DNA from: an uncultured delta proteobacterium
GTDB lineage: Bacteria > Myxococcota_A > Polyangia > Palsa-1104
NCBI GenBank assembly: GCA_963785725.1
Contig: CAWAWS010000033.1
Span: forward strand, 1-64,000
Length of the DNA: 64,000 nt
Reading direction: 5' to 3'
The position numbers and the translations under genes were made by a program. Of this stretch, positions 42,278 to 64,000 are shown one piece after another (position 1 is the first letter of the stretch; the number at the start of each line of letters is the position of its first letter). The notes beneath the pieces are model-generated. The model did not search any database. It was not told the DNA's origin and was given only the letters and a program-made list of their open reading frames with translations.

Positions 42278-43402
42278 TCAGCGGTATTTGAGGCCGGTGC
42301 CGGTGTTGAAGACGACCACGCGGTCTTCGCTGCCGATTTCGCCGCGCGCGCGCAGCTCGCCGACCGCGGCCCACGCCGCGCCGCCTTCGGGGCAGACGTC
42401 GACGCCGGTCATCGCCGCGAGCTGCGCCGCCGCCGGCTCGATCGCCGCTTCCTCGACGGCGACCGCCGTGCCGCCGGTGTCGCGAATGGCGCTCAAGCAC
42501 AAGAAGCCGCCGATCGGCGACGGCACACGCAAGCCCCAGGCGCGCGTCGTCGCGTTCGGCCACGGCTCGGTGCGCGTGGCGTTGTCGCGCAGCCCGGCGA
42601 CGACGGGCGCGCACCCCGCCGCCTGAACGCTGACGAGCCGCGGCAGCGTCGGCAAAGGCCAGCCGAGCGCGCGCATTTCGTCGAACGCCTTCCACATGCC
42701 GACGAGGCCGGTGCCGCCACCGGTCGGATAGACGATGACGTCGGGAAGCGCGCCGTCGAGCTGCTCGTAGAGCTCGTAGGCCATCGTCTTCTTGCCCTCG
42801 ACGCGATAGGGCTCCTTGAGCGTCGAAAGGTCAAACCAATCGCGCGGGCCGTGCTCACGCAGCCACTTGCCGGCGTCGGCGATGGTGCCGTCGACGAGCC
42901 GCACCTCGGCGCCGTAGTGGCGACACTCGTCGACGAACGCGCGCGGCGTATCGGACGGCATCACCACCAGCACCGGCAACTTCGCCGCCGCGCCGTAGGC
43001 CGCGAGCGCGCCGGCCGCGTTGCCCGCCGACGGCGCCATGAGCGCTTTGGCGCCTAGCGCGCGCGCCATCGACACCGCCGCTGTCATGCCGCGCGCCTTG
43101 AACGATCCCGTCGGATTGCGCGCTTCGTCCTTGATCCACGTGCGCTCGTCGACGGCAACGAGGGGCGTGAAGCCTTCGCCGAGCGTCACTTCACCGGCGA
43201 CGAGCGGCAGCACCTCGCGATAGCGCCACAGCGACGACACGCGCCCACGGAGCTCGGCCGGCTGCAGCCGCACCTTGGACCAATCGTAGTCGACGCGCAG
43301 TGGCATTCCGCAGCGTTCACAAACGGTCTGCAGCTTCTGCAGCGTGTGCGGCGTCTGGCAGGCGAAACAGGTCAAACCAATCAGAGCTGGGTTCAGATGC
43401 AT
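42278..43402 (-). CDS. thrC: Threonine synthase (PLP-dependent)
   Basis: TLGEGFTP, NPTGSFKARG, EGKKTMAYE, PTGGGTG and NTGTGLKY. Confidence 0.88.
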   Translation of the reverse strand: MHLNPALIGLTCFACQTPHTLQKLQTVCERCGMPLRVDYDWSKVRLQPAELRGRVSSLWRYREVLPLVAGEVTLGEGFTPLVAVDERTWIKDEARNPTGSFKARGMTAAVSMARALGAKALMAPSAGNAAGALAAYGAAAKLPVLVVMPSDTPRAFVDECRHYGAEVRLVDGTIADAGKWLREHGPRDWFDLSTLKEPYRVEGKKTMAYELYEQLDGALPDVIVYPTGGGTGLVGMWKAFDEMRALGWPLPTLPRLVSVQAAGCAPVVAGLRDNATRTEPWPNATTRAWGLRVPSPIGGFLCLSAIRDTGGTAVAVEEAAIEPAAAQLAAMTGVDVCPEGGAAWAAVGELRARGEIGSEDRVVVFNTGTGLKYR

Positions 43403-43687
43403 AGGCCACCGTCGAGCGTCAGGGCGCGTCGCTGGCGCGCATCATAGCTGCGGCGGCGTCGGCGATCGGCGCAAACGCCGAGGCCCGAGCGCGCATGCAG
43501 GTGGGCGGACGTGTGACGCTGTCGCGGCCGTGGCAGTCGACGGCGGCGCCGATCGTCACCAACCGTCGTCCGACGCGGCGCGCGATCCTCGTCATTTGCG
43601 TGACTTGGCCGCGATCGACGCGGCGACGGCGAAACCGGCAGACGAACGCTACACCTCGGTTGCATTTCGCAGCGCGGTTGCGTAAAT

Positions 43688-43705
43688 TGAATGAGCGCTC
43701 ATTCA
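43688..43705. promoter_or_regulatory. Perfect 18-bp palindrome, TetR-type operator
   Basis: TGAATGAGCGCTCATTCA, 17 nt upstream of the acyl-CoA dehydrogenase start. Confidence 0.7.
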
Positions 43706-43722
43706 GCAACCAGGAGGCCGTC

Positions 43723-45587
<1,865 letters not shown>

Positions 45588-45800
45588 CGGCCATGACGGC
45601 AATGGTTTAACCAATTTTACGATTGGTTGAACCATTGCCGTGGCTAGGGCAACACCCGATCCGTTCGCGCAATTCTCCCCCCGCCACTCGCATGTAGCCC
45701 GTCGACGCGGAATCCCGCGCGCGCCGCCGTCGTGCGCACGATTGAAGGCCACTCAGAAGACAATCTCGCGTCGTCGACGGAGCTTCCCGCGCTCCTCGCT

Positions 45801-45903
45801 GCTGTGTGGCACCGAGGACGAGGCCTCGGCTCATAGCCAATGGACACTGCTCGCTGCGCTGTGTGGCACCGAGGGACGACCTCGCCTCATAGCCGATGGA
45901 CCC
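45801..45903. repeat. Imperfect ~57-bp direct repeat (2 copies)
   Basis: GCTGTGTGGCACCGAGG...CTCATAGCCRATGGAC occurs twice. Confidence 0.75.
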
Positions 45904-46123
45904 CGAGCGCGTCGCCGGAGAAGCGCCATCGGCTCGAGCTCGGATCGCGTGCGATAGCGGAACGCGAATTGGTTTAGCCAATACTGAATTGGACAAACCG
46001 TCTTCGCGCGGCTACGCGGCGGGACGCATGCGTTTAGTCGTGGAATCGCGGGAGATCGAGGGCCGGCGAATGGTTTAACCAATCCTGGAATTGGTTAAAC
46101 CATTTCGCCGGACCGTCGGAGGT

Positions 46124-47724
46124 TTAGCGGTTGCCGTCGACTTCGGGAGCGGGAGCGGAGGTCTTGCGGTTGCCCGGCTCGGAGGCGGCATCGGACGTCG
46201 GACGCGCGGGCGCGGCCGGAGCCGCGTGCGAGTTGCCGACGTTCGGCGTGGCATTCACCGGCCGACCGACCGTGTCGTCGCCGCGGTGCTGCTGCGGCTG
46301 TCCGCCGCCGTGCTGATTTCCCGGCTGGCCGCCGCCGGCGTGCTGCTGCCCGGCGTGCTGATTTCCCGGCTGGCCGCCGCCACCGTGCTGACCGCTCGGC
46401 TGGTTTCCGGGCTGACCGCCGACATGCTGACCGCCCTGCTGGCCGCCCGCATCCTGACCGCCTTGCTGGCCGGCCGTGTGCTGGCCGCCCGGCTGGCCGG
46501 CCGCGTGCTGACCGCCTTGCTGGCCGGCCGCGTGCTGGCCGCCGACATGCTGGCCGCCAGCGCCCGGCGCGCCTGCCGCGCCCGGCGCGCCCATCTCGCC
46601 CGGACGGCGCCGCCCGCGCCCGCCGCGACGACGCTTCTTCCGCTCGGCATCGGCGCCCGCCGGCCCAGCCGGCCCGCCGGCCGCGCTCGCGCCGCCGCCG
46701 CCCGGCGCCTGCCCCTCGGGACGCGGCCCACGCGGCGCACCGCCCGGACCACGTCCGCCCGGTCCGCCACCGCCAGGTCCGCCACCGGGACCACGTCCAC
46801 CCGGTCCGCCGCCGCCGGGACCGCGTCCGCCCGGTCCGCCGCCGCCCGGTCCGCGTCCGCCCGGCCCGCCGCCGCCAGGTCCACGTCCGCCGCCCGGTCC
46901 GCCCGGTCCACGACGCTCGCCGCCCGGTCCGCCCGCGCGCTCGCCGCCCGGCCCGCCTGCGCCGCCCGGTCCGCCCGCGTGCTGCCCGCCCGGCCCGCGT
47001 CCGCGGCCGCCGCGATCATTCCAATCGCCGCCGCCCGGCGCGCCGCGCCCCGGCCGCTTCGGCCCGCGCTTCTTGTCGCCGAACTTGCCGCCGCCGCGCC
47101 CGTCACGCCCCGCGTTCGGATCGCGCGTCAACATCCAGCCCGAGCCCGCCGACGGCGTCGGTCCGCCGCGCTCTTCGCGCTCGTCCTTGGGCGCGCCACC
47201 GTCGCTGCGCGCCGCCTCTTTGACGAGCGAGCCGAGCCCGCGCGGCGCCTTCTGCTTGGGCGCGCCGAAGGGGCTCGGCGCTGCCGCCGTCCACCACCGC
47301 CGCCGCCGCCGCCGCGTCCTTCGCGACCGCCGCCGCCGCCGCGTCCTTCGCGACCGCCGCCACGACCGCCGCGAGCGTCACGCGCGCCGCCGCCGCCCGC
47401 TTCCGGCTGCCAATCGACGACGTAGTTGAACTCGCCGATCTTCGTCGCGCCACGCGGCTCGTGATCGTTGGCGAAGACGCGCACGAGGCGCACCTTGGCC
47501 GCGCGATCGCCGACCGCCTGCAGCGCCTCCAGCAACCGCGCCAGGCGATCGCCGGTGACCGCCAGCGCCTCGCCCAGCCGCTCGCTCATTTGCTCATCGG
47601 TCACGCCTTCGCCTTGCAGCTTGGCGCGCGTCTCCGCCGCTTTCTGCACGGACGTACCGCTGAACTCCGTGACCGTACGGTACGGTCCCTTCTTCTCAGT
47701 TTCGACCTGCTTCTCGTCGCTCAT
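46124..47724 (-). CDS. Protein with a small N-terminal domain and a long RGG/GPGG/Gln-His low-complexity tail; one frameshift at ~47290
   Basis: ORFs 47128..47724 and 46124..47134 join through the frame PSPFGAPKQKAPRGLG...GWMLTRDP. The start overlaps the S1 gene stop. Confidence 0.7.
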
Positions 47725-48933
47725 TTCGTCTTCTTCCCGCCTTTGAGCAAATCTGCGAACGTTCCCAAGCTCGACGGCGCCTTTGGCGCATCATTGGTTG
47801 AACCATTGTTGTCATCGCCGGCTTCGATCAGGCCCAGCGACAAACGGCGCTTGTCTTTGTCGACCGCGAGTACCACGACCTCGAGCTGCGCGCCTACCTG
47901 TGTTGCTTCGCGCGCGTGGCGGATCTGCTTGCCGCTTGGCCAGCTCGCTGACGTGCAAGCAGGCCCTCGACGCCGGGCGCCAGCTCGACGAACGCGCCGA
48001 AGGTCTCGAGGCGCACGACCTTGCCGCTGCGCGCGCGCGCCCTCGTAGAACTTCGTCGCCGCGTCGGCCCACGGATCGCTGGCCAGCGACTTCAGCGACA
48101 GCGAAATACGCTCGCCGCGCTTGGGATCGTCGCCCTTCTCCATCTTCAAGATCTGAACTTCGATCTCTTGCCCGACGCTGAGCACGTCTTTCGGATGCGC
48201 CGACGCGGCTGAAAGCCGAGCTCGCTCACGTGCAGCATGCCCTCGACGCCGCCGAGGTCGACGAACGCGCCGTAGTCCTTGATCGTCGTGACTTTGCCGC
48301 GCACGACCGCGCCGGGCTCGAGCGTCTTGCGCGTCTCGACGGCGAGCGTCGCCTGCTCCTCGCTCGAGCAGCGCGCGGCGCGACACGACCATGTTGAGGC
48401 GATTGCCGTTGAGCTCGTAGCGCGTGATGCGGAAGCGCAGCTTCTGGCCGACGTAGCCGACGCGTCCTCGACGTGGCGCACGTCGAGCTGCGAGATCGGG
48501 CAGAACGCGCGCACGCCGGCGACGGTGACTTCGACGCCGCCTTTGTTGACGCCGCTGACGGTGCCTTCGACGGGGACGCCGAGCTGGAACGCCTGCTCGA
48601 GCTCGGCCTTGCCCTCGGCGCCGCGGCCGAGCAGCCGCTTGAGCACGATCGAGCCCGACGGGCCGCCGACCTCGACCACGCGCGCCTCCAGCTCGTCCAT
48701 TGGTTGAACCAATAGCTTGCCGTCAGCGTCGCGCAGCTCGGTCAGATCGATCACGCCGTCGGACTTGGCGCCGATATCGATGAAGGCGGCGCTGCGACCA
48801 ATGCTGATCACTTTGCCACGCACGTGTCGCCGACCTGCGGCTCCTTGCGCTTCTTCTTCGAACGACCGTCATCCGGACCTTCGAATTCGGCCAGTAGTGT
48901 TGCGAAATCTTCTTCGTCGTGTTCGGGCGGCAT
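47721..48933 (-). CDS. S1 RNA-binding domain protein (RpsA-like, about 4 S1 domains; frameshifted)
   Basis: MPPEHDEEDFATLL...VRGKV, RAFCPISQL, DYGAFVDLGGVEGMLHVSEL and C-terminal LGTFADLL. Confidence 0.85.
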
Positions 48934-48980
48934 GGGCGGGCTAGTCTACATCGAAAGAACCGCCGTGCTATATCAGGCAA

Positions 48981-49259
48981 ATGCCGCCCAAGACTACATG
49001 TCCCATCAGCCGACCCGACTTTTTATCGAAGGCCGAGCCGCTCAAGATCGATCTCGGTAACGGTCAGGTCCTCATCGCCGAGCCGCGCCAGTTCTCCACC
49101 GGCAGCTTCGGCTGGTACGTCAACTCCAAGGCCAACATCTCCGTCGACGGCAAGCCGCTCTCGGTGCAGGTCGGTATGAACCTCATCGTCGTCGGCAGCA
49201 AGGAAGCCAAGGGCGGAGAGACGGCCGAGGCCAAGCCCGACGACAGCAGCAATGGTTGA
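48981..49259 (+). CDS. Small hypothetical protein, 92 aa
   Basis: Good codon usage and motif FSTGSFGW. Its stop TGA is supplied by a TGGTTGAACCA palindrome. Confidence 0.75.
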   Translation: MPPKTTCPISRPDFLSKAEPLKIDLGNGQVLIAEPRQFSTGSFGWYVNSKANISVDGKPLSVQVGMNLIVVGSKEAKGGETAEAKPDDSSNG

Positions 49260-49448
49260 ACCATTGGCGACGGCAGCGGCCCGCGCCGCGCGTCGCTAGC
49301 CGTCACCGGTCGGAACTCAGGTGAACCCGGGTGCGCCTGGGCGCGTCTGCCAGCATTGGCGGCGACGGCCCAGGCGCAATCGTGTGCGGAGTCGTGGGTG
49401 GGTCGGAAATTGGTTTAACCATTCCGAGAAATGGTTAAACCAATTTGC

Positions 49449-52146
49449 TCAGTACTGCTGCAGGAACTACGTGACGCTGGGCTGCTGCGCCCGACGAACG
49501 CGCCGCACAGCTGGATGCGCTCGAGCGCCTGCGCAAGGTTGCGCGGCCCGCCCGGCAGCTTAGGCAGCTGGTCGTTGAAGAAGGCCTCGACGGCGCGCGC
49601 GTGCTCGTCGTCGCAGAAGCTGCCCGTGATCTCGGCGACCCGCCCATCAGCTCCGGCGACAGTCGCCTAAGCAGCTGGTCGAAATGGCTCTGCAGGAACT
49701 TCCACGCCAGCTCGCGCGACTCGGGCTCGCGATCGAGATCGCCGAGCAGCCGATACGTCTCGCGCGCGTCGAAGTCGTCGCTGGCGATGACATCGAGCGT
49801 CGCCTGGTTGAGCGCCGCGCCCGGGAACGCCGGCAGCGTCGCCAGAATGCGACGGCGATCGCTGCGTTCGGTCGCGTGCTTGGCCTCGGCCACGTAGCGG
49901 TCGAAGAGCGCGCGATCGCCGGCCCGCGCCGCCACTTCCAGCACCGACGCCGGCGACGTCGGGATCGACGGCCTTGCGATCGCTCAGCCAGCGCAACGCC
50001 AGACGCCTTGGCCTGCGCGCGCAGCGTCGCGTCCTCGCCCTCGTCGGCGACGAGCCCGACCAATTCCGGGCGCAACAGCCGCGTGTCCTCGTCGTCGCTC
50101 TTGCGCGCCGTCCAGCCGAGCGCGCGCGCCCGCTCGCCGAACACCTTCTGAATGTAACGCGCATATTGCGGCCGCAGCGACGGCGGAACGAGGTGTCTCG
50201 CGCAGCCGCCCCGCCCAATGAATCGACTCCTCGGCCACTTCGCGCCGCGGATCCTTCACCATCCACGGCGTCAGCGCGAGCGCGTCGGCGAGCGGCATGC
50301 GGCCCGCTTGCGTCAGCGCGCTGACGTCGTCGAGGAGCCCGATCATCTCCGGCAGCTCGAGCAGCTTACGACCGTTCTCGCCCAGCAGCTTCGCCAGCAG
50401 ATCGCTGCCGTAGACGGCGCGGAAGTAGCCGGCCTCGCCGTCGTTGGCGAGCAGCCACGTCGGGCAGCTCTTGGCGTCGCTGAGCGGCAGCGTCGCCTTG
50501 ACGTCGCTGACGATGCCGCAGGTGCGACCGGTCTTGCCGCCGGCGACCCAGCGCGCGCACAGCGGAATCTGCCAATGCTGATTGGTTGAACCTTTGCTGC
50601 CGACGGGCAAGAAGCGCTGCTGCGCCAACGCCAGCGACGGCGTCTGCCCGGCGTCGCACTGCAGCTTGACGTCGACGAGCGGCGCGCCCGGCTGATCGAG
50701 GAAGCTCTTGAACGCCGGCGCCAAGTCGCGACCGACGGCGCTCGAGATGGCGCCCACGAAGTCGTCGACGGTGGCGTTGCCGTTGGCGTGCGCCTGCAAG
50801 TAGGCGCGGACGCCGCGCTGGAAGGTCTCGGCGCCGACGAAGCGCTCGAACATCGCCAACACGACGCTGCCTTTGGCGTAGGTGATGCCGCTGTCGAACG
50901 AGTTGTAGATGTCGTCCATGCTGGCGACGGGCTGACGAATGCGGCGCGCGCTGACGAGCGCGTCCGAGCGCAGCGCCTGCGCGCGATAGCCGACGACGCC
51001 GGTATGGTTCAACCATTCCGGCTTCCATTGGTCGATGATCTTCGTCTCCATCCAGGTCGCGAACGATTCGTTGAGCCAGATGTCGTCCCACCACGCGGTC
51101 GTCACGAGATCGCCGAACCACTGGTGCGCGTACTCGTGGGCGGCGACCTCGGCGTATTGCCTCTGGAAACGCAGCCCTTCGTCGGCGTGCTTGGCGACGA
51201 GCAAGCTGTTGGCGTAGGTGACCATGCCGACGTTCTCCATGGCGCCGAACGTCGACGTGATCGGGATGGAGACGTTGTCGAGCTTGTCGAACGGAAACGG
51301 AATGCCGAAGTATTTCTCGAGCAGACCGAGCAGATCGCCCGAGACTTTGACGGCCCAGCGCGCGTCGCCGCCGCGGCCGAACGGCACCGCGACGCGAATC
51401 GGCGTCTGCTTCTGCCCGGCGCGACCGGCTTCGACGATGTCGTAGGGGCCGACGGCGAACGCGACGAGGTAGCTCGGCAGCGGCGCCGTCTCGGCGAACG
51501 TCACCGTCTTCATGCCCGGATGCTCGGCTTTCGTGGCCGTGATGCGCGTATTCGACAGCGTCGCCAGCTTCTCGGGCACTTCCAGCGTCAGCTGCCACGG
51601 CGTCTTCATATCCGGCTGATCGAAGCAGGGAAAGGCGCGGCGCGCGAAGATCGACTCGAACTGCGTGATCGCGTACCAGCGATCGCCCTCTTTCTGCGCG
51701 AAGATGCCGCGATCGTCGCGGCGCGAGATGGGCCCCGTGTAATCGATGTGCAGCGTCGCCTTGCCGGCGGCGATTGGTTTGACCACTTGGAAGCCGACGA
51801 ACTCTTCGTTGCCGGGCACGACGCGCGCCGGGATCTTCTCGCTGCCAACCGTAAAGACGGCCTGCGTGATCTTGAGCTCCGTCGAGTTGAGCCACAAGAG
51901 GTCGGTCGCGCGCTTGAAGTCGATGTCGATGTCGATGGCGCCGCTGAACGTCGGCTGATCCGGCTGCACGTTGACGCGCGCGCGATAGCGGACGGGGCGG
52001 GCGCGATCGTCGACGCGCAGCGCCGGCGGTTGCGCGCCGGCGGGTGAAGCGGTGCCGGCGGCGGCGACGGCGCCCACGGGCGCGGCGGCGGCCGAGGCGC
52101 CGACGAGCGCGAGCGGGATGAAGGCGACCCATGAACGTACGAACAT
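49449..52146 (-). CDS. Secreted M1 family aminopeptidase (ERAP1-like C-terminus; 3' frameshifts)
   Basis: Signal peptide, ARRAFPCFD, GAMEN and HEYAH-x18-E (WLNESFA). Confidence 0.9.
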
Positions 52147-52369
52147 TCTCGATCTCCAGGAGTTGAGGACTACGACTGAGGTGCAACACCGAATGGTGCG
52201 GATGGTTCAACCATTTGCGCAGCTCGTCGCTGAAGGTCGCGCGGGCAGATGTGGGCGACAGTGCGGCGCGGCGCCGCGCAACGGCAGGCGGCCGACGGGG
52301 GAAGACAGACGACTGACGAGCGGCGGCGGTGACGACGTGACGGGCGCGACCCGCTGCACCGAGCCGCAC

Positions 52370-52848
52370 ATTGGTTAAACCAATTCCACGCGCAGCGCGG
52401 CAGGCGAACCGCAGGGCTCACACCGGCAATCGCACGACGCGCGCAGCCGAGAAACGTTACACCGCTCCGCCGAATTGCGGTCGAGGAGGGTTAACCAACT
52501 GCCGGCGCGGCCATGCGACGACTGGAACGGGGATGGTCAAACCAATTGCCGACGCCGTCCCCGGCAGCTTCGAGCGGAAATGGTTTAACCAATTGCAGAC
52601 GTGCCAAGGCTCGAACGGGAATGGTTAAACCGATGGCCGGCGCGGCCACCGCTCGAACGGAACGCTGAACCGATGGCCGGCGCGGCCACTGGCACGACTC
52701 GAACGGGAATGCTTGAACCAACTGCCGGCGCGGCCACTGGCACGACTCGAACCAGCCGCCGCGGCCACTGTCACGACTCGAACGGAATGGTTAAACCACT
52801 GCCGGCGCGGCCACTGTCACGACTCGAACGCGAATGGTTAAACCAATT
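52370..52848. repeat. Degenerate tandem array with TGGTTAAACCA and GCCGGCGCGGCCACTGKCACGACTCGAAC units
   Basis: Motif or near-match at 52372, 52534, 52581, 52622, 52788 and 52835. Confidence 0.85.
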
Positions 52849-53323
52849 GCGGGCGCTGCCAGAGCTCGAACCGATGGGGGAGCTCGTCGTCGCGATGGAG
52901 CTCGGTTTCGGCGAGCGTCCAGGTGTCGTCGAGCGCGGGGAACTGGGTGTCGCCGTCGAAGTGGCGCTCGATGACGGTCAAATGCACGCGACGCGCGAGC
53001 GGCAGCACGTGACGATAGAGCTCAGCGCCACCGATCACGAACGGCTCGTCGTCGGTCTGGCACGCGGCCAGCGCGTCCGCGGGTGAATGCGCGACGATGA
53101 CGCCGTCGGGCGCGCGAAAATCGAGCTGCCGCGTGACGACGACGCTGGTGCGCCCGGGCAGCGCGCGACCGATCGAATCCCACGTGTGACGGCCCATGAC
53201 GATGTGATGCCCCATCGTCAGGCGCTTGAACCGCTGCAGATCGGCCGGCAGACGCCACGGCAATCGATTGTCGACGCCAATGACACGATTCTCCGACATG
53301 GCAACGATGAGCGACAGATTCAC
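52838..53323 (-). CDS. folA: Dihydrofolate reductase
   Basis: LIVAMSENRVIG, LPWRLPADL, MGRHTWDSIGRALPGR, VIGGAELY and GDTQFP. Confidence 0.96.
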   Translation of the reverse strand: MNLSLIVAMSENRVIGVDNRLPWRLPADLQRFKRLTMGHHIVMGRHTWDSIGRALPGRTSVVVTRQLDFRAPDGVIVAHSPADALAACQTDDEPFVIGGAELYRHVLPLARRVHLTVIERHFDGDTQFPALDDTWTLAETELHRDDELPHRFELWQRPQLV

Positions 53324-53410
53324 GCAGCCAACCTCGCATGATTCGACCGCGCCGCAACAGCATTTCTTGTCGCGCGAGTCGTGACAGGACTCGGTCGTTC
53401 GTAAGGAGCG

Positions 53411-53700
53411 CGCTCACTCGAATCGCCGCTCCTCTCAGTCGACCGCACATTGAATCAACCGCTGCTCGAATCGCCGCTTACTTGAAAAGCCGCTTAGTCG
53501 AGTCGCCAGTCACTTGAACAGTCCGCTCGCTTGAACGGCCGCTTGATTGAACAGCCGCTTGATTGAACAGCCGCTTACTCGGATCGACCGTTGCTCGAAT
53601 CGACCATTGCTCGGATCGACGTTACTCGAATCGACCGTTGCTCGAATCGACCGCTCACTTGAATCCACTGGTCAGTTGAATCGGCTCACCGAAATCGGCT
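53411..53700. repeat. Degenerate ~16-17-bp tandem repeat between thyA and folA
   Basis: CTCGAATCGACCGTTG / CTTGAACAGCCGCTT-like units, roughly 15-18 copies. Confidence 0.75.
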
Positions 53701-53834
53701 GGCACTCGAATAGCGCCGCATTCGTCCGGAAGTCGGCGGAGAATGGCGCGCCATTTCCGCCAAGCGTTCGTGCGCTCGACGATTGGCGTTCACTGGAATT
53801 GTTCGCGCGCCACTTCGATGGTTCGTGCGGCGAG

Positions 53835-54629
53835 CTATACGGCGATGGGCGCCTTGATCGTCGGATGCGGGTCGTAGCCGTCGAGCCGGAAGTCTTCGTA
53901 CTGGAATTCGAAGATCGATTGCACTGCGGGATTGAGGTGCATGGTCGGCAATGCGCGCGGCGCGCGCGACAATTGCAGCTGCGCCTGCTCGACGTGGTTC
54001 AAATACAAATGCGCGTCACCGAGCGTATGCACGAACTCGCCGGGCTGAAGATTGCAGACTTGCGCCATCATCATCGTCAACAACGCATAAGACGCGATAT
54101 TGAAAGGGACGCCCAAGAAGATGTCGGCGCTCCTTTGATATAATTGGCAGCTGAGCTTTCCATTGGCGACATAGAACTGGAATAGCGAGTGACAAGGCGG
54201 AAGCTTCATCTTGTTTACTTCGGCGACATTCCAGGCACTGACGATCAAGCGCCGCGAATCGGGGTTCGTCTTGATTTGCGCGACGACGTTGCTGATTTGA
54301 TCGATCGTCGTGCCGTCGGCGGCGGGCCAGCTGCGCCATTGATGACCGTAGACGGGACCCAATTCGCCATTGGCGTCGGCCCATTCGTCCCAAATAGAGA
54401 CGCCGCGCTCCTGCAGCCAATGAACGTTGGTGCTGCCGGTCAAGAACCAGAGCAGCTCGTAGACGATCGATTTCATGTGCAGCTTCTTCGTCGTCACGGC
54501 AGGAAAGCCGGCGGCGAGGTCGAAGCGCATCTGGTAACCGAAGACACTGACCGTGCCGGTGCCGGTGCGATCCCCTTTTTTGACGCCGTTGTCGAGGACG
54601 TGGCGCACGAGGTCGAGGTATTGCTTCAT
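53835..54629 (-). CDS. thyA: Thymidylate synthase
   Basis: MKQYLDL, DRTGTGT, ELLWFL, LPPCH and [18 protein letters not shown]. Confidence 0.98.
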
Positions 54630-54669
54630 CGAGTCCAGAAGGTACCAGATCGTGATAGCTTTCGGCACC

Positions 54670-57600
54670 GTGCCATCGATCGCGTATTACGACTTCGACA
54701 AGGTCGAAAAGACGCTCAAGCTCGGCGCCGAGCCGGTTCTGATTGGCCGCGCGATCGAGTGCCAAATCCGCACCGAGGACGCCGTCGTCTCCCGGCGCCA
54801 CGCGCGCATCCTGCGTGAAGCCGACGACTATTGGATCGAGGATTTGGGCAGCCTGAGCGGCGTCTTCATCGGCACCGAGAAGGTCAAGCGCGCCAAAGTC
54901 GTCCCCGGCGAGCTCATCGTCATGGGCAGCCTCGTCGTGCGGCTCGTCGCTGACGGCTCGTCGCAGCCGGGCAGCGATCGCGTCGACGTGACGGCGACGC
55001 CGGCGATGGCGGCGCAGCTGGAGGCGGCGCAAGCGGAGATCGCCGAGCTCAAGAAGGCCAACGAGCGGCTGCGCTCGAACACGACGGCGGCGAGCGGGCT
55101 CGACACCGAGCTGAAGCGCGCGCGCGACGATGCGGCGCGCGAGCGGAAAGTGCGGCAGACCGCGGTCGAGGGCGAGCGCGAGGCAGCCAAGAAGTCGGCG
55201 GCGCTGGCGGCGGAGATCGAGCGGCTGCGCGGCGAGAGCGACAAGCTGCGCGCGGATGTCGACGCGGCCCGAGCGGCGGCGCGCGACGCGCGAGCCGACG
55301 GCGGGTCGGCGGACTCAGCCGAGACGAGCGCGGCGTTGGCGGCGTTGCGCGCCGAGATCGATCGCGCGCACGCCGACGGCGCGACGTTGCGGGCGGAGCT
55401 GGCGGCGGCGCAGGCGGCGAGCGCGACGTGGCAGTCGCAGCTGGCGCCGACGGGCCCGGCCGCCGCCGACCTGGCAGCGGCCCGTGCCAGCGAAAATGCG
55501 CTGCAGGGCGAGCTCGACCGGGCGCGCGCGGAGCTGGCGGCGCTGCACGCGAACGCTGGAAAAGCGGGCGAAGACACCGCCGCGCTGCGCGGCGACGTCG
55601 AGCGCGCGCGGGCGAGCGAGAGCAAGCTCAAAGTCGAGCTCGAGGCGCTGCGCGGCGATGCGAGCGCCACGCAGGCGCAGCTGGCCGACGCGCGGACGGA
55701 CGCCGACGCGTTGCGGACGCAGCTGGCCGCGGCGCAGGTCGATGCGGGCGCGCTCACATCGCAGGTCGAGAAGTCGCAGGGCGAGGCCGACGCGCTACGC
55801 GCCGAGCTGGACAGGACGCAGGCCAACGCCGACGCGTTGCAGACCCGGCTGAACGAGGCGCGCGCGAGCGAGAGCGACCTGCGCGCCGAGCTGGCGCGGG
55901 CGCAAGGCGACGACCGCGCGCTGCATGACGAGCTGGCGGCGGCGCGCGCCGACGCGGCGGCGTTGCAGGCGGCGGCGGAGACGGCGAGCGTCGCGGCGGC
56001 GGCCGTGCAGGCCGAGCTCGGCCAGGCGCACGGCGAGCTGACGCAAGCGCAGGCGAAGGCGAGCGCGTTGCGGGCGGAGCTCGCCGGTGTGCACGCGAGC
56101 GAAGCGGCCGCGCAGGCGGAGCTCGCGACCGCGCAGGCGACGCTGTCGCAGCTGCAAGAACAGCTGGCGCAGGCCACCGGCGAGCTCGAGAAGCGCGCGG
56201 GCGTGGCGGCGGAGAGCGAGCGTCACGCGGCCGAGCTGCAGGGCGAGCTGACCGCGCTGCGCGCCGAGCTGAGCGACGTCCACGGCGAGGAGACGGCGCG
56301 AAAACAGCAGGTCGAGCAGGCACACGCCGAGCTGGCGGCGACGCGCGCCGAGAGCGACGCGCGGTTGCAGGCGTCCGAGCAGCTGACGAGCGAGCGCGAG
56401 GGCTTGCGCGCCGAGCTGCAGGCGGCGCAGGCGGCGTTGACGAGCGCGCGGCAGGAGCTGGCGACGGCGCAGACGGCGGCGGACGAGGCGCGCGCCGATG
56501 CGGCGCGACTGCGGGCGGCGATCGAGCAGACCGACGGCAACGAAGGCACGCTGCGCGCCGAGATCGCGCGGGCGCAGGGCGACGCCGAGGGCTTGCGCGG
56601 CGAGCTGACCCAGGCGCGCGACGAGGCCACGAAGCTGCGCACGCTCGTCGAGCACGGGCAGGGCGAGCGCGACGAGCTGCAGGCGGCGATCGTCGCCAAG
56701 GACGCGGCGGCGGCGCACTTGCGCGGCGAGCTGCAGGCGGCGCAAGCGGCGCACGAGCAGGCGCAAGCGGCGAGCGCGCAGGCGCACGGCGAGCGGGACG
56801 AGCTGCGCGCGGCGCACGAGCAGGCGCAGGCGGCGAACGCGCAGGCCGAGACGGTCGTCGCGGCCGAGCTGGAGCGCGCGCGGGCGACGGTGACTGCGCT
56901 CGAGCAGGAGCGGACGTCGCTGACGACGCAGCTGGCGGAGCTGCACGCGCGGCAAGATGAGGCGGCGCAGGCCCATACGATCGAGCTGACGCAGCTGCGG
57001 ACGCAGGCGGAGGCGAGCGCGAATCAGCTGGCGGAGCTGCAGGCGCAGCAGACGACGCTGACGACCGAGGGCGAGCGGCTGCGCGGCGACGGTGAGCGGC
57101 TGACGCACGAGCTGCAGGCGGCGCGCGAGCAGGCGGCGGCGGAAGCGGCGCAGCGGGCCGAGCTGCAGGCGCGCATCGAGGCGGCGGCCGAGGACGCGCG
57201 GGCGGCCAAAGCGGCGACGGCGACGCTGGAGTCGGCACGTGAGCAGCTGGAGCGCGAGCGTGACACGTTGCATGCGCAGCTGACGCAGTCGGGCGAGCAT
57301 GCAAAGGACGCGGCGCTGCTGGCGGGGCGTGTCGCCGAGGCCGAGCAGCAGGCGAAGATGGCGCGGCAGGAGACGCTGGAGACGGCGGCGCGCGTGCAGA
57401 CGGCCGTCGACGAGGCGCACCGGCTGACGGCCGAGCTGCGCGCGCGCGACGAGCGGCTGCAGGCAATCGACGCCGAGCTGGCGAGCGCGCGGCAGGCGGC
57501 GCAGGCGGAGGTCTCGCGCGCGCATGCGGCCGACGAGCGCGCGCAAGTGGCCGAGCGCGCGCTGGCGGCGCAGGTCGCAGAGGGCGGCGTCGTCGCGCAG

Positions 57601-58795
57601 AAGCTGCAGGCGGTATCGGAGCAGCTGGCGGAGTCGGAGGCGCGGCTGAAGTCGGAGGCGGCGCGCGCGCAGGAGCTGGCGGCGCAGGCGAACGCGGGGC
57701 AGGAGCGCGTGCAGACGTTGGAGCTGCAGCTGAAGACGGCCGAGCAGCAGGCGGCGGACGCGACGACGCAGGCGGCGGACGCGGCGGAGCGGACGAACAA
57801 GCTGGCGGCCGCCGCGGGGACGAGCGGCGAGCAGGCGCGCGCCGTCGAGCAGCAGCTGGAGGCGGCGACGGCGCAGCTGCGGACGGCCGAGGCGCGCGCG
57901 GGCGAGCTCGAGCGCCAGCTGCACGCGGCGCAGGAAGAGACGCGCGCGGCGGCGACATTGGCGACGGAGCGCGAGCGAGAGGTCGCGGCGGCGACGGCGG
58001 CGGCGCGCGCGGCCGGGGCGCAGTCGGCAGACGCGACGGCGCTCGTCGAGCGGTTGGCGGCGGCGGATGCCGAGCTGCACGCGGCGCAGGCGCGGATCGT
58101 CGAGCGCGAGCAGCGGCTGAGCGATTCTCGAGCGGCAAGCAAAGGCGGCGGACGAGCGGGCGTTGGATGCCGAGGGGCGTGCGCACGAGATCTCGGCGCG
58201 GCTGGATGTGGCCGAGAAGCTGGCGAAGGACGCGACGGCACACGTCGAGGTCGAGGCGCGGCGGGCCGACGACGAGCGGGCGATGCGGCGGGCGGCGGAA
58301 GAGGAGCGCGAGCTGCTGCACGATCGCGCGGCGGGGCTGGAGCGCGAATTGGCGGCGGCGACGGCGGCGCACGGCGCCGGCGGGCAATCATCGGCGGCCG
58401 GCGGCCAATCGGCGATCGGCGGATCGGCGGCGGCGGGCCAAGCGGCAGCCAGCGGCCAGTCGGCAGCCAGCGGCCAATCGGCAGCAGGCGCTGGCGGGCA
58501 TGCGCACGGCGCGGGCGCGAACGGCGACCGTGCGGTCCACGGCGGGCCGGGGGCGCACGCGGCGGGTGCGCCGAGCGTCCCGCCCGGCACCATCGATACA
58601 GTCAGCGCCGTCACCGATGCGCTCGCCGAGCTGCGTGCCAGCCTGCGCGCCGCCAGCGACGAGACGGCAGCGATGACGGAGCCCACGACGTCGGTCCAGG
58701 TCGTCTCCGAGGCGCTCAGCCAGGCGACCGAACAGCTCGAGAACGCGCGCGCGCATCTGCGGGCCCTGTCGCAAATCGTCGGCAGCGACCCGTAG
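54670..58795 (+). CDS. FHA-domain protein with a very long coiled coil (about 1370 aa; frameshift at ~58120-58160)
   Basis: FHA motifs IGR...VSRRHA...DLGSLSG followed by >1000 aa of Ala/Glu/Arg/Gln heptads. Continues in ORF 58163..58795. Confidence 0.8.
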
Positions 58796-58991
58796 CCGTC
58801 GCGGCGAGCCAGCGCGCCCGCCGTAACAGCTCGAGACGCGCGCATCTGCGGGCCTATCGCAAATCGTCGGCAGCGACCCGTAGCCGTCGCGGCGAGCCAG
58901 CGCGCCCGCCGCAACGGCTCGAGACGCGCGCGCATCTGTCGCAAATCGTCGGCAGCGACCTGTAGTCGCGGCGAGCCAGCGCGCCCGCCGT
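58742..58991 (+). repeat. Three ~85-bp direct copies of the 3' end of the FHA gene, including its stop codon
   Basis: GCGCGCATCTG...TCGCAAATCGTCGGCAGCGACCYGTAG...GCGGCGAGCCAGCGCGCCCGCCG occurs three times. Confidence 0.9.
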
Positions 58992-59016
58992 TCGTCGCAC
59001 TCGACGGCGCCGGCGC

Positions 59017-59660
59017 AATGGTTAAACCATTTTCACGATTGGTTTAACCATTGTTTGCGCCGCCACGTCCCCGACCGCGTCATGTTTGCGACATCGCGCT
59101 CGCGCGACGAAGCCATCGTTTGCCAACGTCGGACGCTGCCCACCGAGCCATGTCGCGAGCGTCGGCGCCGCGAGACTACGCCACTGTTTGCGGACGCCGG
59201 CGCTCCGAAACCGAGCGATAGCGCCCCCATATTGCCGCTCCGAAACCGGGCCATTGTTTGCGACATCGTGCTCCGATACCGATCCATTGTTTGCGAGCGT
59301 CGGCGCTCCGAGACAAGGTTCGCGATAAACCTTCCGTAACTTTGCCGGTTCAGCCGATGTCCGGCGCGAAGGAGCCGCGGCGCGCGCGGGCACAGCCCGC
59401 CCGCGCGCCGCGGCCAAGCAGCCCGAGCCACTCCGCGGCCGACCAGCCGACCCGTCGCGTCCACACTCCCCGCCGACCAGTCGACACGTCGCTTCCGCAC
59501 TCCCCGCCAACCAGTCGACACGTCGCTTCACGCGCGGCGGATCGATCAGCCGACCAGCCGAGCCGCGGCTTCCGCACTCCGCACCCGACTGAGCCTAGCC
59601 GTGGATTCCACACGCCGCACCGAGCGGCCCAGCCGCGGCCTCCGCACTCCGCACCCGCGC
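59017..59660. repeat. Repeat-rich intergenic region
   Basis: Palindrome doublet at 59019/59040, CCATTGTTTGCGA...GCTCCGA units (~59050-59320) and CTTCCGCACTCC units (~59400-59660). Confidence 0.65.
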
Positions 59661-59676
59661 GTATCCGCGCTGCGCG

Positions 59677-61731
59677 CTATGATCGGCGCCGCAGCGACAG
59701 CGGATTGACGTCTTGCGTCGCGATCCCCAGCTCGCGCAGCAGACGATCGAGCTGTTGCCGCGCGACGGGATGGTAGCCGTCGCGAAAGCGTCGCCACCAG
59801 CCGCCGACACGAGCGCGCGTCGCCGGATTGCGCGCCAAGGCCAAATACAGCGGCCGCAAGAACTTGACGCGACCGCCGCCGCGCTCGCCGGCGCCGTCGA
59901 GCGCAGACTCGACGACGTCGAGTGCCGGCGCGTAGTCGCTCTCGATCGCCAACGGCAACCACGCGGCGCGCACCTCGGCGTTGTCGGTCGCGGTAAGGTT
60001 GAACCATTGATCGAGCGTCGCGCACAACGACGATGGACGCGGCAAACCGTCGAGGTACCAGCGCCATTGCCACGGGTCCCAGGTCGCCGCATCGTCGCGC
60101 GCCGGCAACCTGTCGAGCGCTGACGCCGAGCGGGACGCGCCCAGATCCGTCGTATCGCCCGCCGGAGCCGCGGTATCTGACGATTCCGCTCGCGACGACG
60201 ACGCGCCAACGCTCGCTTCGGTCGATGCAGCCGCACTCGCGTCGGTCGACGCGGTTGCGCGCCCGCCGCCCGACGCAACTGCAGCCCGGTCGCTCGATGC
60301 GTCAATTTGGTCGCCCGATGCGGTCGCACTTCGGTCGCTCGACGTGTCCGCAATTCGGTCGCTCGACGCGGCTGCGGCTCCATCCATTGCCGTCGCAGCA
60401 ACCGCGCTCATCAGTGCGCCGGCCACGCCGGACCCCGTCGCGGACGTGGCGCTGGCCGGCAGTCCCGATTGGTTCAACCATTCGTCGACCCGGAATTCTG
60501 GCGCGGCCGCCGCGACGAAGGCCGCTAGCTCCTCCGACGTGATGACGCGACCGGCGAGATCGACGATCCAAGCGCGTAGCCAACGATCGAAGCGGTCGCG
60601 GCCGAGGTGCTCCTCGAGCGCGCACAAAAAGAGGTAACCCTTTTCATAAGGGACGATCGAGAGCGCATCGTCGGGATCGAGACCTTCGAGGTGCGTCCGC
60701 AGCCGCGTCAGCTCCGGCCGCGCGCCGAACGCGACCAGCGCACGATCGAGCTCGCGACGACCGATCGCCGCTTGCAGTCGTGCCGCCGCTGCGCCCGCGA
60801 GCTGCTCGGCCAACCGACGCTCCGCATACACGGCGAAACCTTCGTTGATCCACAGATGCTCGGCCGACGCCGCGCCGACGAGGTTGCCGAACCAGGCGTG
60901 GCAGAGCTCGTGCGCAACGACGCCGAGCAGCGCGCCATCACGCGTCAGCAGCGACGGCGAGAGGAACGTCAGCTGTGGATTCTCCATGCCGCCGTAGGGA
61001 AACGAGGGCGGCGCGATCCACAGGTCGAAGCGCGGCCAGCGATAGGGACCGAGCAAGGCTTCGGCCGCGTGCAGCGTGCGGCCGATGACGGCGAGCACGC
61101 GCGCCGCCTCGTCGATCCGCGCCGGCGCCGCCCAGACGCGCATGCGCGGCGTCAGGTCGCGCGCGACGAAATCGCCGACCGCCAGCGCCAACAGATAGGG
61201 CGCGATTGGTTCAACCATTTCGTACGTCGTTGTTGCGTCGTCGGCGCTCTCGACGCGCGCGACGAACGCGCCGGCCAGGAGCGTCGTCAGCGCGCGCGGC
61301 ACCGTGACCTCGGCGCGCATCGTCAGCCGGGCCGACGGCGAGTCCGGCAGCGGCACGAGCGTACGCGCCTGAATCGGCTGGCACTGGCTGTAGACCAATT
61401 GGTTTAACCATTGCAGCGCGGTCGCAGTGGGCGAGGTGCGATAGACGATGCGCACCGTATGCGCCCGCCCGCGCTCGACGCGCAATCGGCGGCCCAGGAA
61501 CGGATGCGGCGGACTCAGCTCGAACGGCAGCGCCGCGCCCTCGCCGTCGTCGATGCTGACGATATCGAGCTCGCGCGTGTCTAGGTCGACGAAGTCGCCG
61601 GCGCCGTCGACGCGAAGGCAGGCTTCGGCGGCGAGGGTGCGGCTGGCGAAATCGACGCGCACGCGCCAGTCGAGGTGGCGGACGCGCGGCTGCGCGTCGT
61701 CGAACACGGAGTGCGGATCGGGACGCGGCAC
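59677..61731 (-). CDS. M1 aminopeptidase, leukotriene-A4-hydrolase-like, with an Ala/Ser/Asp repeat insert
   Basis: RPDPHS, SQCQ, FPYGGMENP, HELCH-x18-E (WINEGF) and PYEKG. SSDR repeats at ~60115-60440. Confidence 0.9.
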   Translation of the reverse strand: MPRPDPHSVFDDAQPRVRHLDWRVRVDFASRTLAAEACLRVDGAGDFVDLDTRELDIVSIDDGEGAALPFELSPPHPFLGRRLRVERGRAHTVRIVYRTSPTATALQWLNQLVYSQCQPIQARTLVPLPDSPSARLTMRAEVTVPRALTTLLAGAFVARVESADDATTTYEMVEPIAPYLLALAVGDFVARDLTPRMRVWAAPARIDEAARVLAVIGRTLHAAEALLGPYRWPRFDLWIAPPSFPYGGMENPQLTFLSPSLLTRDGALLGVVAHELCHAWFGNLVGAASAEHLWINEGFAVYAERRLAEQLAGAAAARLQAAIGRRELDRALVAFGARPELTRLRTHLEGLDPDDALSIVPYEKGYLFLCALEEHLGRDRFDRWLRAWIVDLAGRVITSEELAAFVAAAAPEFRVDEWLNQSGLPASATSATGSGVAGALMSAVAATAMDGAAAASSDRIADTSSDRSATASGDQIDASSDRAAVASGGGRATASTDASAAASTEASVGASSSRAESSDTAAPAGDTTDLGASRSASALDRLPARDDAATWDPWQWRWYLDGLPRPSSLCATLDQWFNLTATDNAEVRAAWLPLAIESDYAPALDVVESALDGAGERGGGRVKFLRPLYLALARNPATRARVGGWWRRFRDGYHPVARQQLDRLLRELGIATQDVNPLSLRRRS

Positions 61732-62137
61732 GCCGGCAGTGTAGCGCGCCGCGACCACGCCTGTCGCATCGCCGCGCAGCCGCGATCGTCTTCGAGTGCG
61801 TATGCCGCATCGTCGCGCATTGGCGACCGCTCTCGACCGCGGGCGCCGCATCGTCGCGCGCCGGCGATTCCGCGTGCCAGATGGACGAAACCCGCGTGAT
61901 CAGCTGCATCGAGCAATGGTTAAACCAATCGAGGGAATGGTTTAACCATTGCTCGGCGGGCGGTCGAAAAAGATGCTGACAGCGACGAATCGTCGATCGC
62001 GCGCCGCGATCTGCGACGGCCCATCGATCGCCGGTCACAGCGGGCCGGCCCTGCGGCCGCGCCACCGCCGACCGTGCTGCCGCTACCGATTGCCTGCCGG
62101 ACGAGCAGCGTCTTCCGTTACGCTTATATGTCCTGCG

Positions 62138-63268
62138 ATGGCAACGCGTCGTCAGCACATCTTGCTCGTCCCCGGCTTCTTCGGCTTCGCCAACCTCGGC
62201 GATTTCGCCTATTTCGCGCACGTCCGCGATTTCCTCGTCACGTTCATGCGCCAACGCGACCTCGAGGGCGAAGTGCGCGTCGTGCAGACGTATCCGACCG
62301 CGTCGCTGGCTCGCCGCGCGACGCGCGTCGCCGAGACGGTGGCCGAGCTGCTCGACGACGACGACGGCGACGTTCACCTCATTGGCCACTCGTCGGGCGG
62401 CCTCGACGTGCGCCTCTTCACCGCGCCCAACGTCTCTCTGCCCACGACGCTCGACGTCGACAAATATGCCTGTCGCGTCAAAACCGTCGTCTCGCTCTCG
62501 TCGCCGCACCGCGGCTCGCCGCTGGCGACGTTCCTGTCGAGCGTCCTCGGCGCGCAGCTCTTGCGCGTCATCTCGCTGGTCACGATTTACACGCTGCGCG
62601 GCGGGCGCGTGCCGATCGCCGCCGTGTTTCATCTCGTGCGCCTGTTGTCGCTACCGCGGCTGCCGATGATCGATTCCGGCACGCTGCTCAACAATATCTA
62701 TCGCGATCTCCTGTCCGACTTCTCCCACGATCGCCGCGAAGCGCTCGAGCAGTTCATGATCACCGTCGGCGAGGATCAGGAGCTGCTCGGACAGCTGACA
62801 CCGACGGGGATGGAGACGTTCAACCAATCGACGTTCGATCGTCCCGGCGTGCGTTATGGCTCGGTCGTGACGTGCGCGCGACGGCCGGGCGCGCTGACGG
62901 CGTGGGCGGTCGGCGCGTCACCGCTGCGCCAGACGACGCATTTATTGTTCAACGCGTTTCATCGTCTTACGGCCAATATGTCGTCGATTCCCGTTGGTTT
63001 GACCTATGCGCAGTCGACGGCGTTGACGCGCGCCTACGGCCGACTCCTGGCACCGCGCGACAACGACGGCATGGTCCCGACGCTGTCGCAGGTCTGGGGC
63101 GAAATCATCCACGCGACGTGGGGCGATCACCTCGATGCCATCGGCCACTTCTACTTGCCGTCGCATGTTCCGCCGCACTTCGACTGGCTCAACAGCGGCA
63201 CGCGCTTCTCGATGAGCGACTTCGAGCACATCTGGCGCGACGTCGGCGAATTCTTGGTCGCGAAGTAG
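62138..63268 (+). CDS. Alpha/beta-hydrolase, triacylglycerol lipase-like
   Basis: LVPGFFGF, GHSSGGLD nucleophile elbow, PHRGSPLA, NDGMV and DHLD. Confidence 0.88.
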   Translation: MATRRQHILLVPGFFGFANLGDFAYFAHVRDFLVTFMRQRDLEGEVRVVQTYPTASLARRATRVAETVAELLDDDDGDVHLIGHSSGGLDVRLFTAPNVSLPTTLDVDKYACRVKTVVSLSSPHRGSPLATFLSSVLGAQLLRVISLVTIYTLRGGRVPIAAVFHLVRLLSLPRLPMIDSGTLLNNIYRDLLSDFSHDRREALEQFMITVGEDQELLGQLTPTGMETFNQSTFDRPGVRYGSVVTCARRPGALTAWAVGASPLRQTTHLLFNAFHRLTANMSSIPVGLTYAQSTALTRAYGRLLAPRDNDGMVPTLSQVWGEIIHATWGDHLDAIGHFYLPSHVPPHFDWLNSGTRFSMSDFEHIWRDVGEFLVAK

Positions 63269-63274
63269 CGGGCC

Positions 63275-63760
63275 AATTGGTTAAACCAATGCGTGCACGC
63301 CAATGCGCGCGAGCCGCGACCGCGGCCACGCAGCTGCACGCCGCGTCGTAATCAGCCGAAACGGCCTAACCAATCGCGGGCGTCGTTGAGCCAGTCGCGC
63401 GTGTGGTCAAACCAATCGCTTGCGTCGCAAAACCAGTAGCAGCCTCGTACCAAGCGCGTGTCGTCGTAACCAGTCGCGTGCGTGGTCAACCGGTCGCGTG
63501 CGTGGTCAAACCGGTCGCGTGCGTGGTCAAACCGGTCGCGTGCGTGGTCAAACCGGTCGCGTGGGCGATTAAACCAATCGCGTGCGTGGTCAAACCGGTC
63601 GCGTGCGTGGTCAAACCGGTCGCGTGCGCGGTTAAACCAATCGCGTGCGTCGTAACCAGCCGCGTGGATGTCATCCAGCCGTGTGGATGTCATCCAGCCG
63701 CGTGGATGTCATCCCGCCGCGCTAATGGTTAAACCAATTCAACGAATGGTTAAACCAATC
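63275..63760. repeat. 21-bp tandem array of degenerate palindrome units plus exact copies
   Basis: GCGTGCGTGGTCAAACCGGTC units (~63360-63660). Exact TGGTTAAACCA at 63278, 63726 and 63747. Confidence 0.9.
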
Positions 63761-63796
63761 CTCGCGGCGAGTGCCCGGCGACGATCGGTTGCGGAA

Positions 63797-64000
63797 TCAG
63801 TCGCGGGCGGTGCGGTTCCAGCGTTGCCGACGACGCACGAGCGCGACGAGCGCCGACTTGATCGTCGGTAGCGCGTACAGCGGCGCGGCCAGCACGACAC
63901 GCAGCGGCACTCGGTCATGCGCAAATCGCCACCACGCGGCGACGATCGCCAGCGCGCACGTCGTCATGCCGGCCAAGGCGTACGCAAACGGACGCCAGTC
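63797..64000 (-). CDS. C-terminus of a membrane protein, possibly a GT2 glycosyltransferase (partial)
   Basis: Reads ...AAWWRF...LAAPLYAL...RWNRTARD*. W-x-R-T-x-R tails are common in GT2 enzymes. Confidence 0.55.
   Translation of the reverse strand, partial: DWRPFAYALAGMTTCALAIVAAWWRFAHDRVPLRVVLAAPLYALPTIKSALVALVRRRQRWNRTARD

Follow-up and report, generated by a model that had tools for sequence, protein, structure and literature searches.

The stretch of DNA analysed here, referred to as the window, comprises 64,000 nucleotides from an uncultured delta proteobacterium, a myxobacterium, and corresponds to positions 1-64000 of contig C33 in genome G000, to which the contigs C7, C19 and C39 mentioned below also belong. 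From position 40526 onwards it carries a dense series of short palindromic boxes, many of them arranged in closely spaced pairs (doublets). The flanks of 109 exact cores with A or T at the centre define a predicted operator of 15 bp, the palindrome AWTGGTTNAACCAWT, in which A is found at -2 in 97% and T at +2 in 99% of these cores; the centre base itself is variable and is G in the box at 45624. The original prediction described six pairs of boxes lying exactly 21 bp apart, start to start, with mostly different 10-base spacers. All six are present where they were placed and with the spacers given, but the spacer length requires correction: the outer two bases of each former spacer are conserved and the site is therefore 15 bp long, with a free linker of 6 bp and a doublet architecture of 15+6+15 bp (36 bp). 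The sites in the window are distributed as follows:

40526..64000: motif island C, about 40 sites, about one per 550 bp, with sharp edges; it extends slightly beyond the window end
40526..40605: tandem array of period 21 (periodicity at 40547-40607), three exact boxes and one degenerate box
41939..42257: tandem array of period 43, four exact boxes with decayed copies upstream
45601..45636: doublet 1, in a convergent gap, 14 bp past the stop of an acyl-CoA dehydrogenase gene
46069..46104: doublet 2, in the same convergent gap as doublet 1, 20 bp past the stop of an S1-domain gene
47793..47807: single box within the S1-domain gene, missing from the orthologous DNA of relatives G002 and G003
48699..48713: single box within the S1-domain gene; 5 or 6 of the 6 overlapped residues are unlike those of site-less orthologues
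49409..49444: doublet 3, in a convergent gap at the 3' end of an M1 aminopeptidase gene, whose probable stop lies within the second box
51003..51017: single box within the aminopeptidase gene, created by in-register substitution
52532..52861: tandem arrays of period 46-48, out of helical phase, boxes damaged in several copies
52850..59016: site-free gap of 6,184 bp between boxes, the largest in any island, with single-copy folA and thyA and an FHA gene
59017..59052: doublet 4, in the convergent gap between an FHA/coiled-coil gene and a second M1 peptidase gene
60468..61412: three single boxes within the second M1 peptidase gene, each common to at least one congener
61915..61950: doublet 5, in the divergent (promoter) gap between the M1 peptidase gene and a lipase-like gene; the sole divergent one of the six
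63404..63650: decayed tandem array of period 21 with partial boxes
63724..63759: doublet 6, in a convergent gap, 38 bp from the stop of a glycosyltransferase gene

The doublet pattern matches eight times in the window (the six pairs and two in the array at 40.5 kb) and has no match in any of 100 dinucleotide shuffles. Tandem arrays at 40.5, 42.1 and 63.5 kb had also been reported and are present, the last, at 63449-63650, in decayed form with periods of 21, 42 and 63. Throughout G000, 36 of 158 distances between adjacent sites amount to exactly 21 bp, compared with a mean of 0.27 and a maximum of 4 in 20,000 trials of random placement, so that the 21-bp excess expected in a genome-wide histogram holds. 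An independent peak at 42-43 bp, which had likewise been anticipated, does not exist; such distances stem from tandem arrays or triplets. Descent of the doublets from one mobile unit is likewise not supported. The 24 two-site clusters lack common flanks (mean best flank identity of 0.324 compared with 0.323 for random flanks) and contain 23 distinct linkers, which resemble the flanks no more than expected by chance (p=0.45) and thus bear no trace of direct duplication. The proposal that doublets originated by something other than slippage can therefore be upheld for the two-site clusters, whereas it fails for the longer arrays with units of 21, 31, 43, 46-48, 96 and 117 bp, which arose by duplication.

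The random flank identity and the variety of linkers, together with coding sites that arose by substitution (see below), led us to reject a mobile or repetitive extragenic palindromic (REP)-like repeat. A related explanation holds that the two boxes of a doublet pair with each other in RNA or single-stranded DNA (15-bp stem, 6-base loop) and in this way terminate or protect transcripts, or that they form a small mobile repeat. In fact, the doublets of the window fold together with their flanks at -24 to -42 kcal/mol and lie at 3' ends. However, any two palindromes fold in this manner, complementarity of the flanks is not significant (best p=0.06, for ungapped flanks in G000), none of the six window doublets is called as a terminator and viral contigs contain no match. 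An exact loop length would be needless for a hairpin, and most sites are single. We consider this explanation largely refuted and its remaining probability very small indeed.

The relatives referred to below by number are G001-G004, G007 and G010-G012, of which G012 represents a related genus. Counted in the stretches of DNA fetched from these organisms, 22 of 23 pairs less than 60 bp apart in G001-G004, G007 and G010 show the 21-bp distance, whereas 18 of 21 close pairs in G012 are spaced at 20 bp. Two helical turns, as put forward originally, are thus not a universal rule. A metagenome scan in which the spacing was left free between 15 and 45 bp yielded 111 stretches, of which 79 were read. 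Orthologues of island genes are carried by 23 of these, several being overlapping pieces of one organism, with spacings of 21 bp in 14 cases, 20 bp in eight and 32 bp in one. One metagenome locus derives from a relative with 97-99% identity that has the same doublet and linker, and the feature is therefore not an assembly artefact. The DNA fetched from G002 spans the whole island and has no doublet at the matching junctions; the six doublets of the window therefore probably arose in the G000 lineage. Taken together, and in partial agreement with the original prediction of adjacent dimers that bind cooperatively, we regard it as probable that the pitch is fixed by a dimer-dimer contact specific to each protein lineage, with cooperativity as its cause.

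A candidate for the binding protein is encoded on a contig other than that of the window, within the island designated A below. The gene (C7:367.8-368.6 kb) specifies a protein with GntR (E 1.7e-21) and FCD (E 6.5e-6) domains according to Pfam, whose predicted structure (predicted local distance difference test score, pLDDT, 92) contains seven C-terminal helices and most resembles E. coli FadR (TM scores of 0.72-0.78 for the top Foldseek matches); its helix-turn-helix is closest to that of PdhR. The site fits the FadR consensus TKGT-N3-ACMA (PMC4494728). In the FadR subfamily, Asn at position 39 has been linked to A/T at the central bases of the operator (PMC4494728), and we read an Asn that follows an invariant Arg in the island A protein as this position. 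Protein and site are also connected at the promoter of the gene itself: a doublet covers promoter and start codon in all seven orthologues of the family whose 5' end is intact. The start codon is contained in the second box, and as a consequence the protein begins with MVKPI in all seven. These doublets have seven different linkers, and upstream of the first box there is a TTGAC hexamer. No box occurs at the starts of the other three GntR genes of G000. Among 14 family genomes, six possess both motif and orthologue and six neither; G007, which is 51% complete, has the motif only, and G011, in which no exact site was detected, has the gene only, truncated by a contig end. Features of the orthologues are an N-terminal arm of basic character and a C-terminal tail rich in Arg and Lys; the arm is missing, as a single case, in the protein of G010, a genome with only eight sites.

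Double operators at such genes occur outside the family as well. When 15 of 36 doublet loci from a genome collection were examined, 11 were of the Desulfosarcina type, with a 21-bp doublet before a FadR-type gntR gene, two were myxobacterial with a 20-bp doublet before gntR, and two lacked gntR. The gntR promoters found elsewhere show spacings of 15, 19, 23, 29, 30 or 35 bp. Doublets at gntR genes in other organisms and their varied spacings indicate that the double operator is an ordinary unit tuned in each lineage. It is thus very probable that the GntR protein of island A is the binder and that a common self-repressing double operator was the ancestral unit. Two further observations concern doublets and their linkers. 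Five of 17 doublets in G012 have one 5-base linker in common that is identical to the linker of its gntR promoter, either because this linker is preferred or because a master doublet was copied. A contig from Erysipelotrichaceae carries a 20-bp doublet and several partial boxes with no gntR gene nearby; the gene behind this doublet we take to be Rex-like.

The pattern is not spread over the whole genome, as 136 of the 137 exact 11-bp cores of G000 are confined to four islands of 12-34 kb:

C7:356-390 kb: island A
C7:421-435 kb: island B
C33:40-64 kb: island C, in the present window
C39:304-316 kb: island D

With up to one mismatch to the 15-mer, 150 sites lie inside the islands and one outside. 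Active avoidance elsewhere was considered and rejected, since the single core observed outside compares with 1.1-1.5 expected and is at chance level. Within the islands the density is flat, most bins of 5 kb containing 7-15 strong sites (two in the 55-60 kb bin of the window), and at their edges it falls to zero within one such bin. The islands have a G+C content of 0.66-0.70 and consist of core genes whose order is as in relatives and which are syntenic across genera; single-copy birA, lolA and yggX have sites within or beside them. Islands A-C carry genes for acyl-CoA and fatty-acid metabolism, including three of the 15 enoyl-CoA hydratase genes (p=4e-4), and island D has no lipid gene among its genes. 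The lone site outside the islands lies directly upstream of an aconitase-like gene, presumably encoding an aconitase, and no island surrounds it. As a separate observation, island B contains (C7:422-435 kb) a cluster conserved across the family that comprises genes for LolA, acyl carrier protein, a FabG-like reductase, two ketosynthases, an acyltransferase, a deacetylase and a sulfatase.

This distribution bears on the possibility that the additional sites act as an antenna or a sink, that is, that they serve as auxiliary operators and enrich the repressor in the vicinity of a few fatty-acid promoters, or soak the protein up, with the doublets as the strongest sites. It would agree with the age of the sites, the oldest of which belong to the gntR promoter and to the surroundings of acyl-CoA genes in islands A and B, and double sites at the own promoters of FadR-subfamily regulators are on record (PMC4494728). 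On the other hand, there is no promoter peak in the flat density, island D is new to its lineage and offers no obvious target gene, and the box upstream of the aconitase-like gene manages without an island. We therefore judge this explanation unlikely.

With respect to genes the sites are not placed at random. According to our own curated gene calls, pairs at 21 bp are most frequent at convergent junctions (11 of 15) and less so at tandem (6 of 30) and divergent ones (2 of 15; p=1.5e-4), and five of the six doublets of the window reside in convergent gaps. This clustering at 3' ends would be expected if bound pairs, at gene ends as well as within genes, acted as roadblocks that stop or slow RNA polymerase, such that an island is damped or insulated until ligand releases the protein and no long-range architecture is involved. 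Likewise in line with a roadblock are the sparing of thyA and folA and the acyl-CoA genes in islands A-C, and there is precedent in the stoperators of phages (PMC9283540) as well as in the finding that a looped repressor forms a stronger roadblock (PMC7797058). However, stoperators are asymmetric and function in one orientation only (PMC9283540), while the present sites are symmetric. Neither sites in or beside single-copy birA, lolA and yggX nor the unrelated gene content of island D and of the additional site-bearing regions of G012 speak for such a function, and we rate it as rather unlikely in its own right. Both the roadblock and the antenna or sink are compatible with, and not exclusive of, the interpretation that we prefer below.

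Of 124 site clusters, 43 are located inside genes. Alignments show that these sites were created by in-register substitution without insertions or deletions and required several separate, often non-synonymous changes; some have been kept across genera. Where sites overlap codons, 245 of 654 residues (37%) agree with those of orthologues lacking the site, compared with 2800 of 4244 (66%) in the flanks, a comparison in which gaps are scored as mismatches and in which sites may prefer variable positions. New sites have also appeared on a larger scale. Island D contains 26 exact cores, and the orthologous DNA of G002, G003, G004, G010 and G012 contains none, even at one mismatch, while G012 has sites in regions that are site-free in G000 and unrelated in gene content. 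Relaxed 15-mer counts amount to 131 in G000, 49 in G012, 31 in G004, 28 in G001, 22 in G003 and 8 in G010, and a sample of 288 genomes belonging to other families of the class yielded no count above six.

All four islands belong to the top 3% of the genome for tandem repeats (97th-99th percentile, 7.5-12% compared with a median of 1.0%), 54 of the 67 tandem arrays being site-free, and 17 of 37 island junctions, compared with 4 of 25 outside, have longer gaps than their counterparts in relatives. Repeat richness and longer gaps fit fork stalling at bound arrays or selection for room. The former could be taken further, in that bound arrays stall replication forks and the sites are copied by slippage and template switching, with bound copies retained through weak selection or mutation bias; the islands would then be a self-feeding by-product devoid of function. 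Repressor-operator arrays are known to block forks (PMC1636447), and a weak inverted symmetry of the G000 doublets, whose variable bases agree at 42 of 72 positions in inverted and 26 of 72 in direct orientation (p=0.016), would also be in accordance. The inverted signal is, however, absent in relatives (p=0.90 and 0.94), and G012 doublets instead show a weak signal of duplication (p=0.027). Since copying of this kind leaves the substitution-born coding sites and their retention across genera unexplained, we deem a mere by-product very improbable.

Beyond the doublet, distances of 25-250 bp between neighbouring sites in G000 phase at 10.7 bp (n=37 with arrays collapsed; p=0.006 in a scan of 9.5-12 bp). 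Site-bearing repeat units of 31, 43, 96 and 117 bp are in helical phase and the 54 site-free arrays show no phasing. Independent metagenome contigs provide further spacings of 31, 31, 32, 106 and 107 bp. These spacings are at most suggestive of short loops.

Several explanations linked to the position on the chromosome were considered. dnaA, parB and canonical parS sites reside on contigs other than those of the islands, with parS near dnaA on C19, and an SMC gene is present. The islands themselves were therefore dismissed as parS or origin markers. On a map of G002, for which contigs were ordered by synteny and one join was inferred by exclusion, the islands correspond to +0.97-1.00 Mb (A), +1.06-1.07 Mb (C) and about -1.23 Mb (B) from dnaA and thus occupy near mirror positions. 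An apparent inversion about the origin placed A beside B in G000. A distance band from oriC common to all islands was rejected, as it fits A, B and C but not D, and so was a role as terminus marker, the islands being far from the point opposite oriC on this map. No clear dif site was detected with a loose pattern, and GC skew was too weak for use.

A number of observations on the window and its genome stand apart from the sites. The acyl-CoA dehydrogenase, S1-domain and aminopeptidase genes (43700-52150) contain frameshifts at several places. Contigs from short reads of four DNA runs, short and mixed, were compared over 44001-63900; they provided no information on the boxes but are gapped relative to the assembly at 43700-52150, and the site-free rpoD gene (C7:413-415 kb) is broken as well, so that the frameshifts are probably assembly indels. 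A dispersed repeat of about 130 bp with about 35 genome copies, unrelated to the motif, is found at about 41695-41860 and 59290-59430, and a second family of dispersed repeats at C39:304.6 kb. Degenerate site-free tandem repeats (units of 16/31, 88 and 34-36 bp) occupy 53450-53680, 58748-58991 and 59429-59657, in gaps that are short in congeners. The left edge of the island is adjoined by a gene for a Ser/Thr kinase of 1590 residues with a long low-complexity insert (35679-40451). Elsewhere in G000, 20 tRNA genes lie on one strand within 4.4 kb (C3:124966-129345).

As the best overall interpretation we propose that a FadR-type dimer would bind the 15-mer and that two dimers would do so side by side and cooperatively, at a pitch set by the protein. 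Bound pairs may then nucleate a looped or bridged protein coat over the island instead of each serving as the switch of one promoter. In our estimation this reading has an even chance of being correct. Selection would favour many sites per island, doublets arising in the free DNA of convergent gaps and single boxes where codons allow; helically phased neighbouring sites would be joined in short loops and the islands may gather in one focus, for which we see the odds as balanced. In a comparable manner, the tetrameric GntR protein Atu1419 loops DNA on a small scale (PMC7797058) and clusters bound by Rok interact (PMC11841835). If E. coli FadR is taken as a guide, the coat would be loosened by a ligand of the acyl-CoA type. 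Going one step further, a metabolite-sensing FadR-type repressor may have become a sequence-specific organiser of the chromosome. Its ancestral double operator would be created anew, time and again, at the pitch that the protein dictates, and would cover islands of 12-34 kb that are looped into one focus in a manner switched by acyl-CoA. Unrelated loci could give rise to new islands, and the two chromosome arms would possibly be joined at mirror positions that lie about 1.0-1.2 Mb away from the origin. This extension is tentative, and we lean against it.

A coat over whole islands and its extension to an organiser have to be weighed against a series of observations. The acyl-CoA genes in islands A-C resemble what a true regulon would look like, and the position of single-copy thyA and folA in the largest site-free gap suggests that bound sites affect transcription. 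The preference for convergent gaps and variable codons may reflect mere tolerance of change. G010 keeps the GntR protein with just eight sites and, together with the gene of G011, which is accompanied by no exact site found, implies that islands are dispensable. Helical phasing loses its significance when flank-similar pairs are left out (n=25, p=0.39); the relatives do not show it (n=18, p=0.31), and it weakens at distances above 250 bp. The array units of 46 and 48 bp are out of phase and their copies damaged. Finally, the DNA of G002 orthologous to island D lies at +0.39 Mb from oriC and breaks the mirror pattern of islands A-C.

An operator of this type, single or doubled, is known, but not its multiplication into islands, and we found no description of operator islands of such sort in the open-access literature. 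A term search of two supplements of PMC4494728 returned no entry for Sorangium, Myxococcus or Desulf-. New are the doublet statistics, the lineage-specific pitch, the doublets at gntR genes of another phylum and the bias towards convergent ends, as well as the mirror positions, the gain of island D in its lineage and, tentatively, the phasing. The lineages with 20-bp and 21-bp doublets form a natural pair for studying how a contact between GntR dimers sets the pitch, and protein and sites are small enough for work in E. coli. If the islands are looped or bridged, chromosome structure could be switchable by a metabolite.

The candidate binder and its site are closest to the FadR subfamily of GntR regulators (E. 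coli FadR, PdhR, LldR), which likewise recognise an A/T-rich TKGT-N3-ACMA palindrome and have a self-regulating site (PMC4494728). Double sites at constant distance have been described for this subfamily, and one enterobacterial FadR site has the identical 11-bp core, the only entry of this core in the supplements (PMC4494728). The FadR treated in PMC5397183 belongs to the TetR family and is not relevant here. In contrast to the few promoters of FadR regulons, about 150-160 strong sites are assembled in four islands, they are enriched at convergent ends and inside genes, where proteins have been altered for the sites, and whole islands have been gained in single lineages. Confinement to the promoters of a coherent regulon is not observed, in view of the few divergent junctions with pairs (2/15), the intragenic clusters (43/124) and island D without a lipid gene. 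Atu1419 from Agrobacterium fabrum is a tetrameric GntR/FCD protein. Its dimers occupy a pair of palindromes at a distance of 109-190 bp and loop the DNA, and one of these palindromes is situated inside a gene (PMC7797058), as are some sites here. It belongs to the VanR group, has six C-terminal helices and zinc and serves a handful of sites (PMC7797058), whereas the present system combines a protein modelled with seven such helices with adjacent pairs at 21 bp and arrays that extend over whole islands.

The closest model for a possible mode of action of the islands is Rok from Bacillus subtilis, a repressor located at a few chromosomal clusters that engage in long-range contacts (PMC11841835). 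Dense sites in few discrete clusters are also found here (136 of 137 cores in four islands). Rok is, however, H-NS-like and prefers AT-rich foreign DNA (PMC11841835), while the islands consist of core genes of normal G+C content, are marked by an exact palindrome and have as their candidate binder an unrelated GntR protein with a ligand pocket. The stoperators of cluster A mycobacteriophages comprise many sites for a single repressor over tens of kb, often in short intergenic gaps; they are asymmetric, oriented with transcription, bound by monomers and part of a phage (PMC9283540), in contrast to the symmetric, paired and chromosomal sites described here. With the parS/ParB system the islands share clustered palindromes that mark a chromosomal region and also occur within genes; unlike parS, they lie 0.4-1.2 Mb from oriC in G002 coordinates. 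The matS sites are likewise clustered and mark a region. Known bacterial domain markers rely on proteins dedicated to this task. In the present case, a ligand-gated repressor of an ordinary kind seems to have been expanded, along with its double operator, to the scale of whole islands, altering proteins on the way and founding a new island within one genus.

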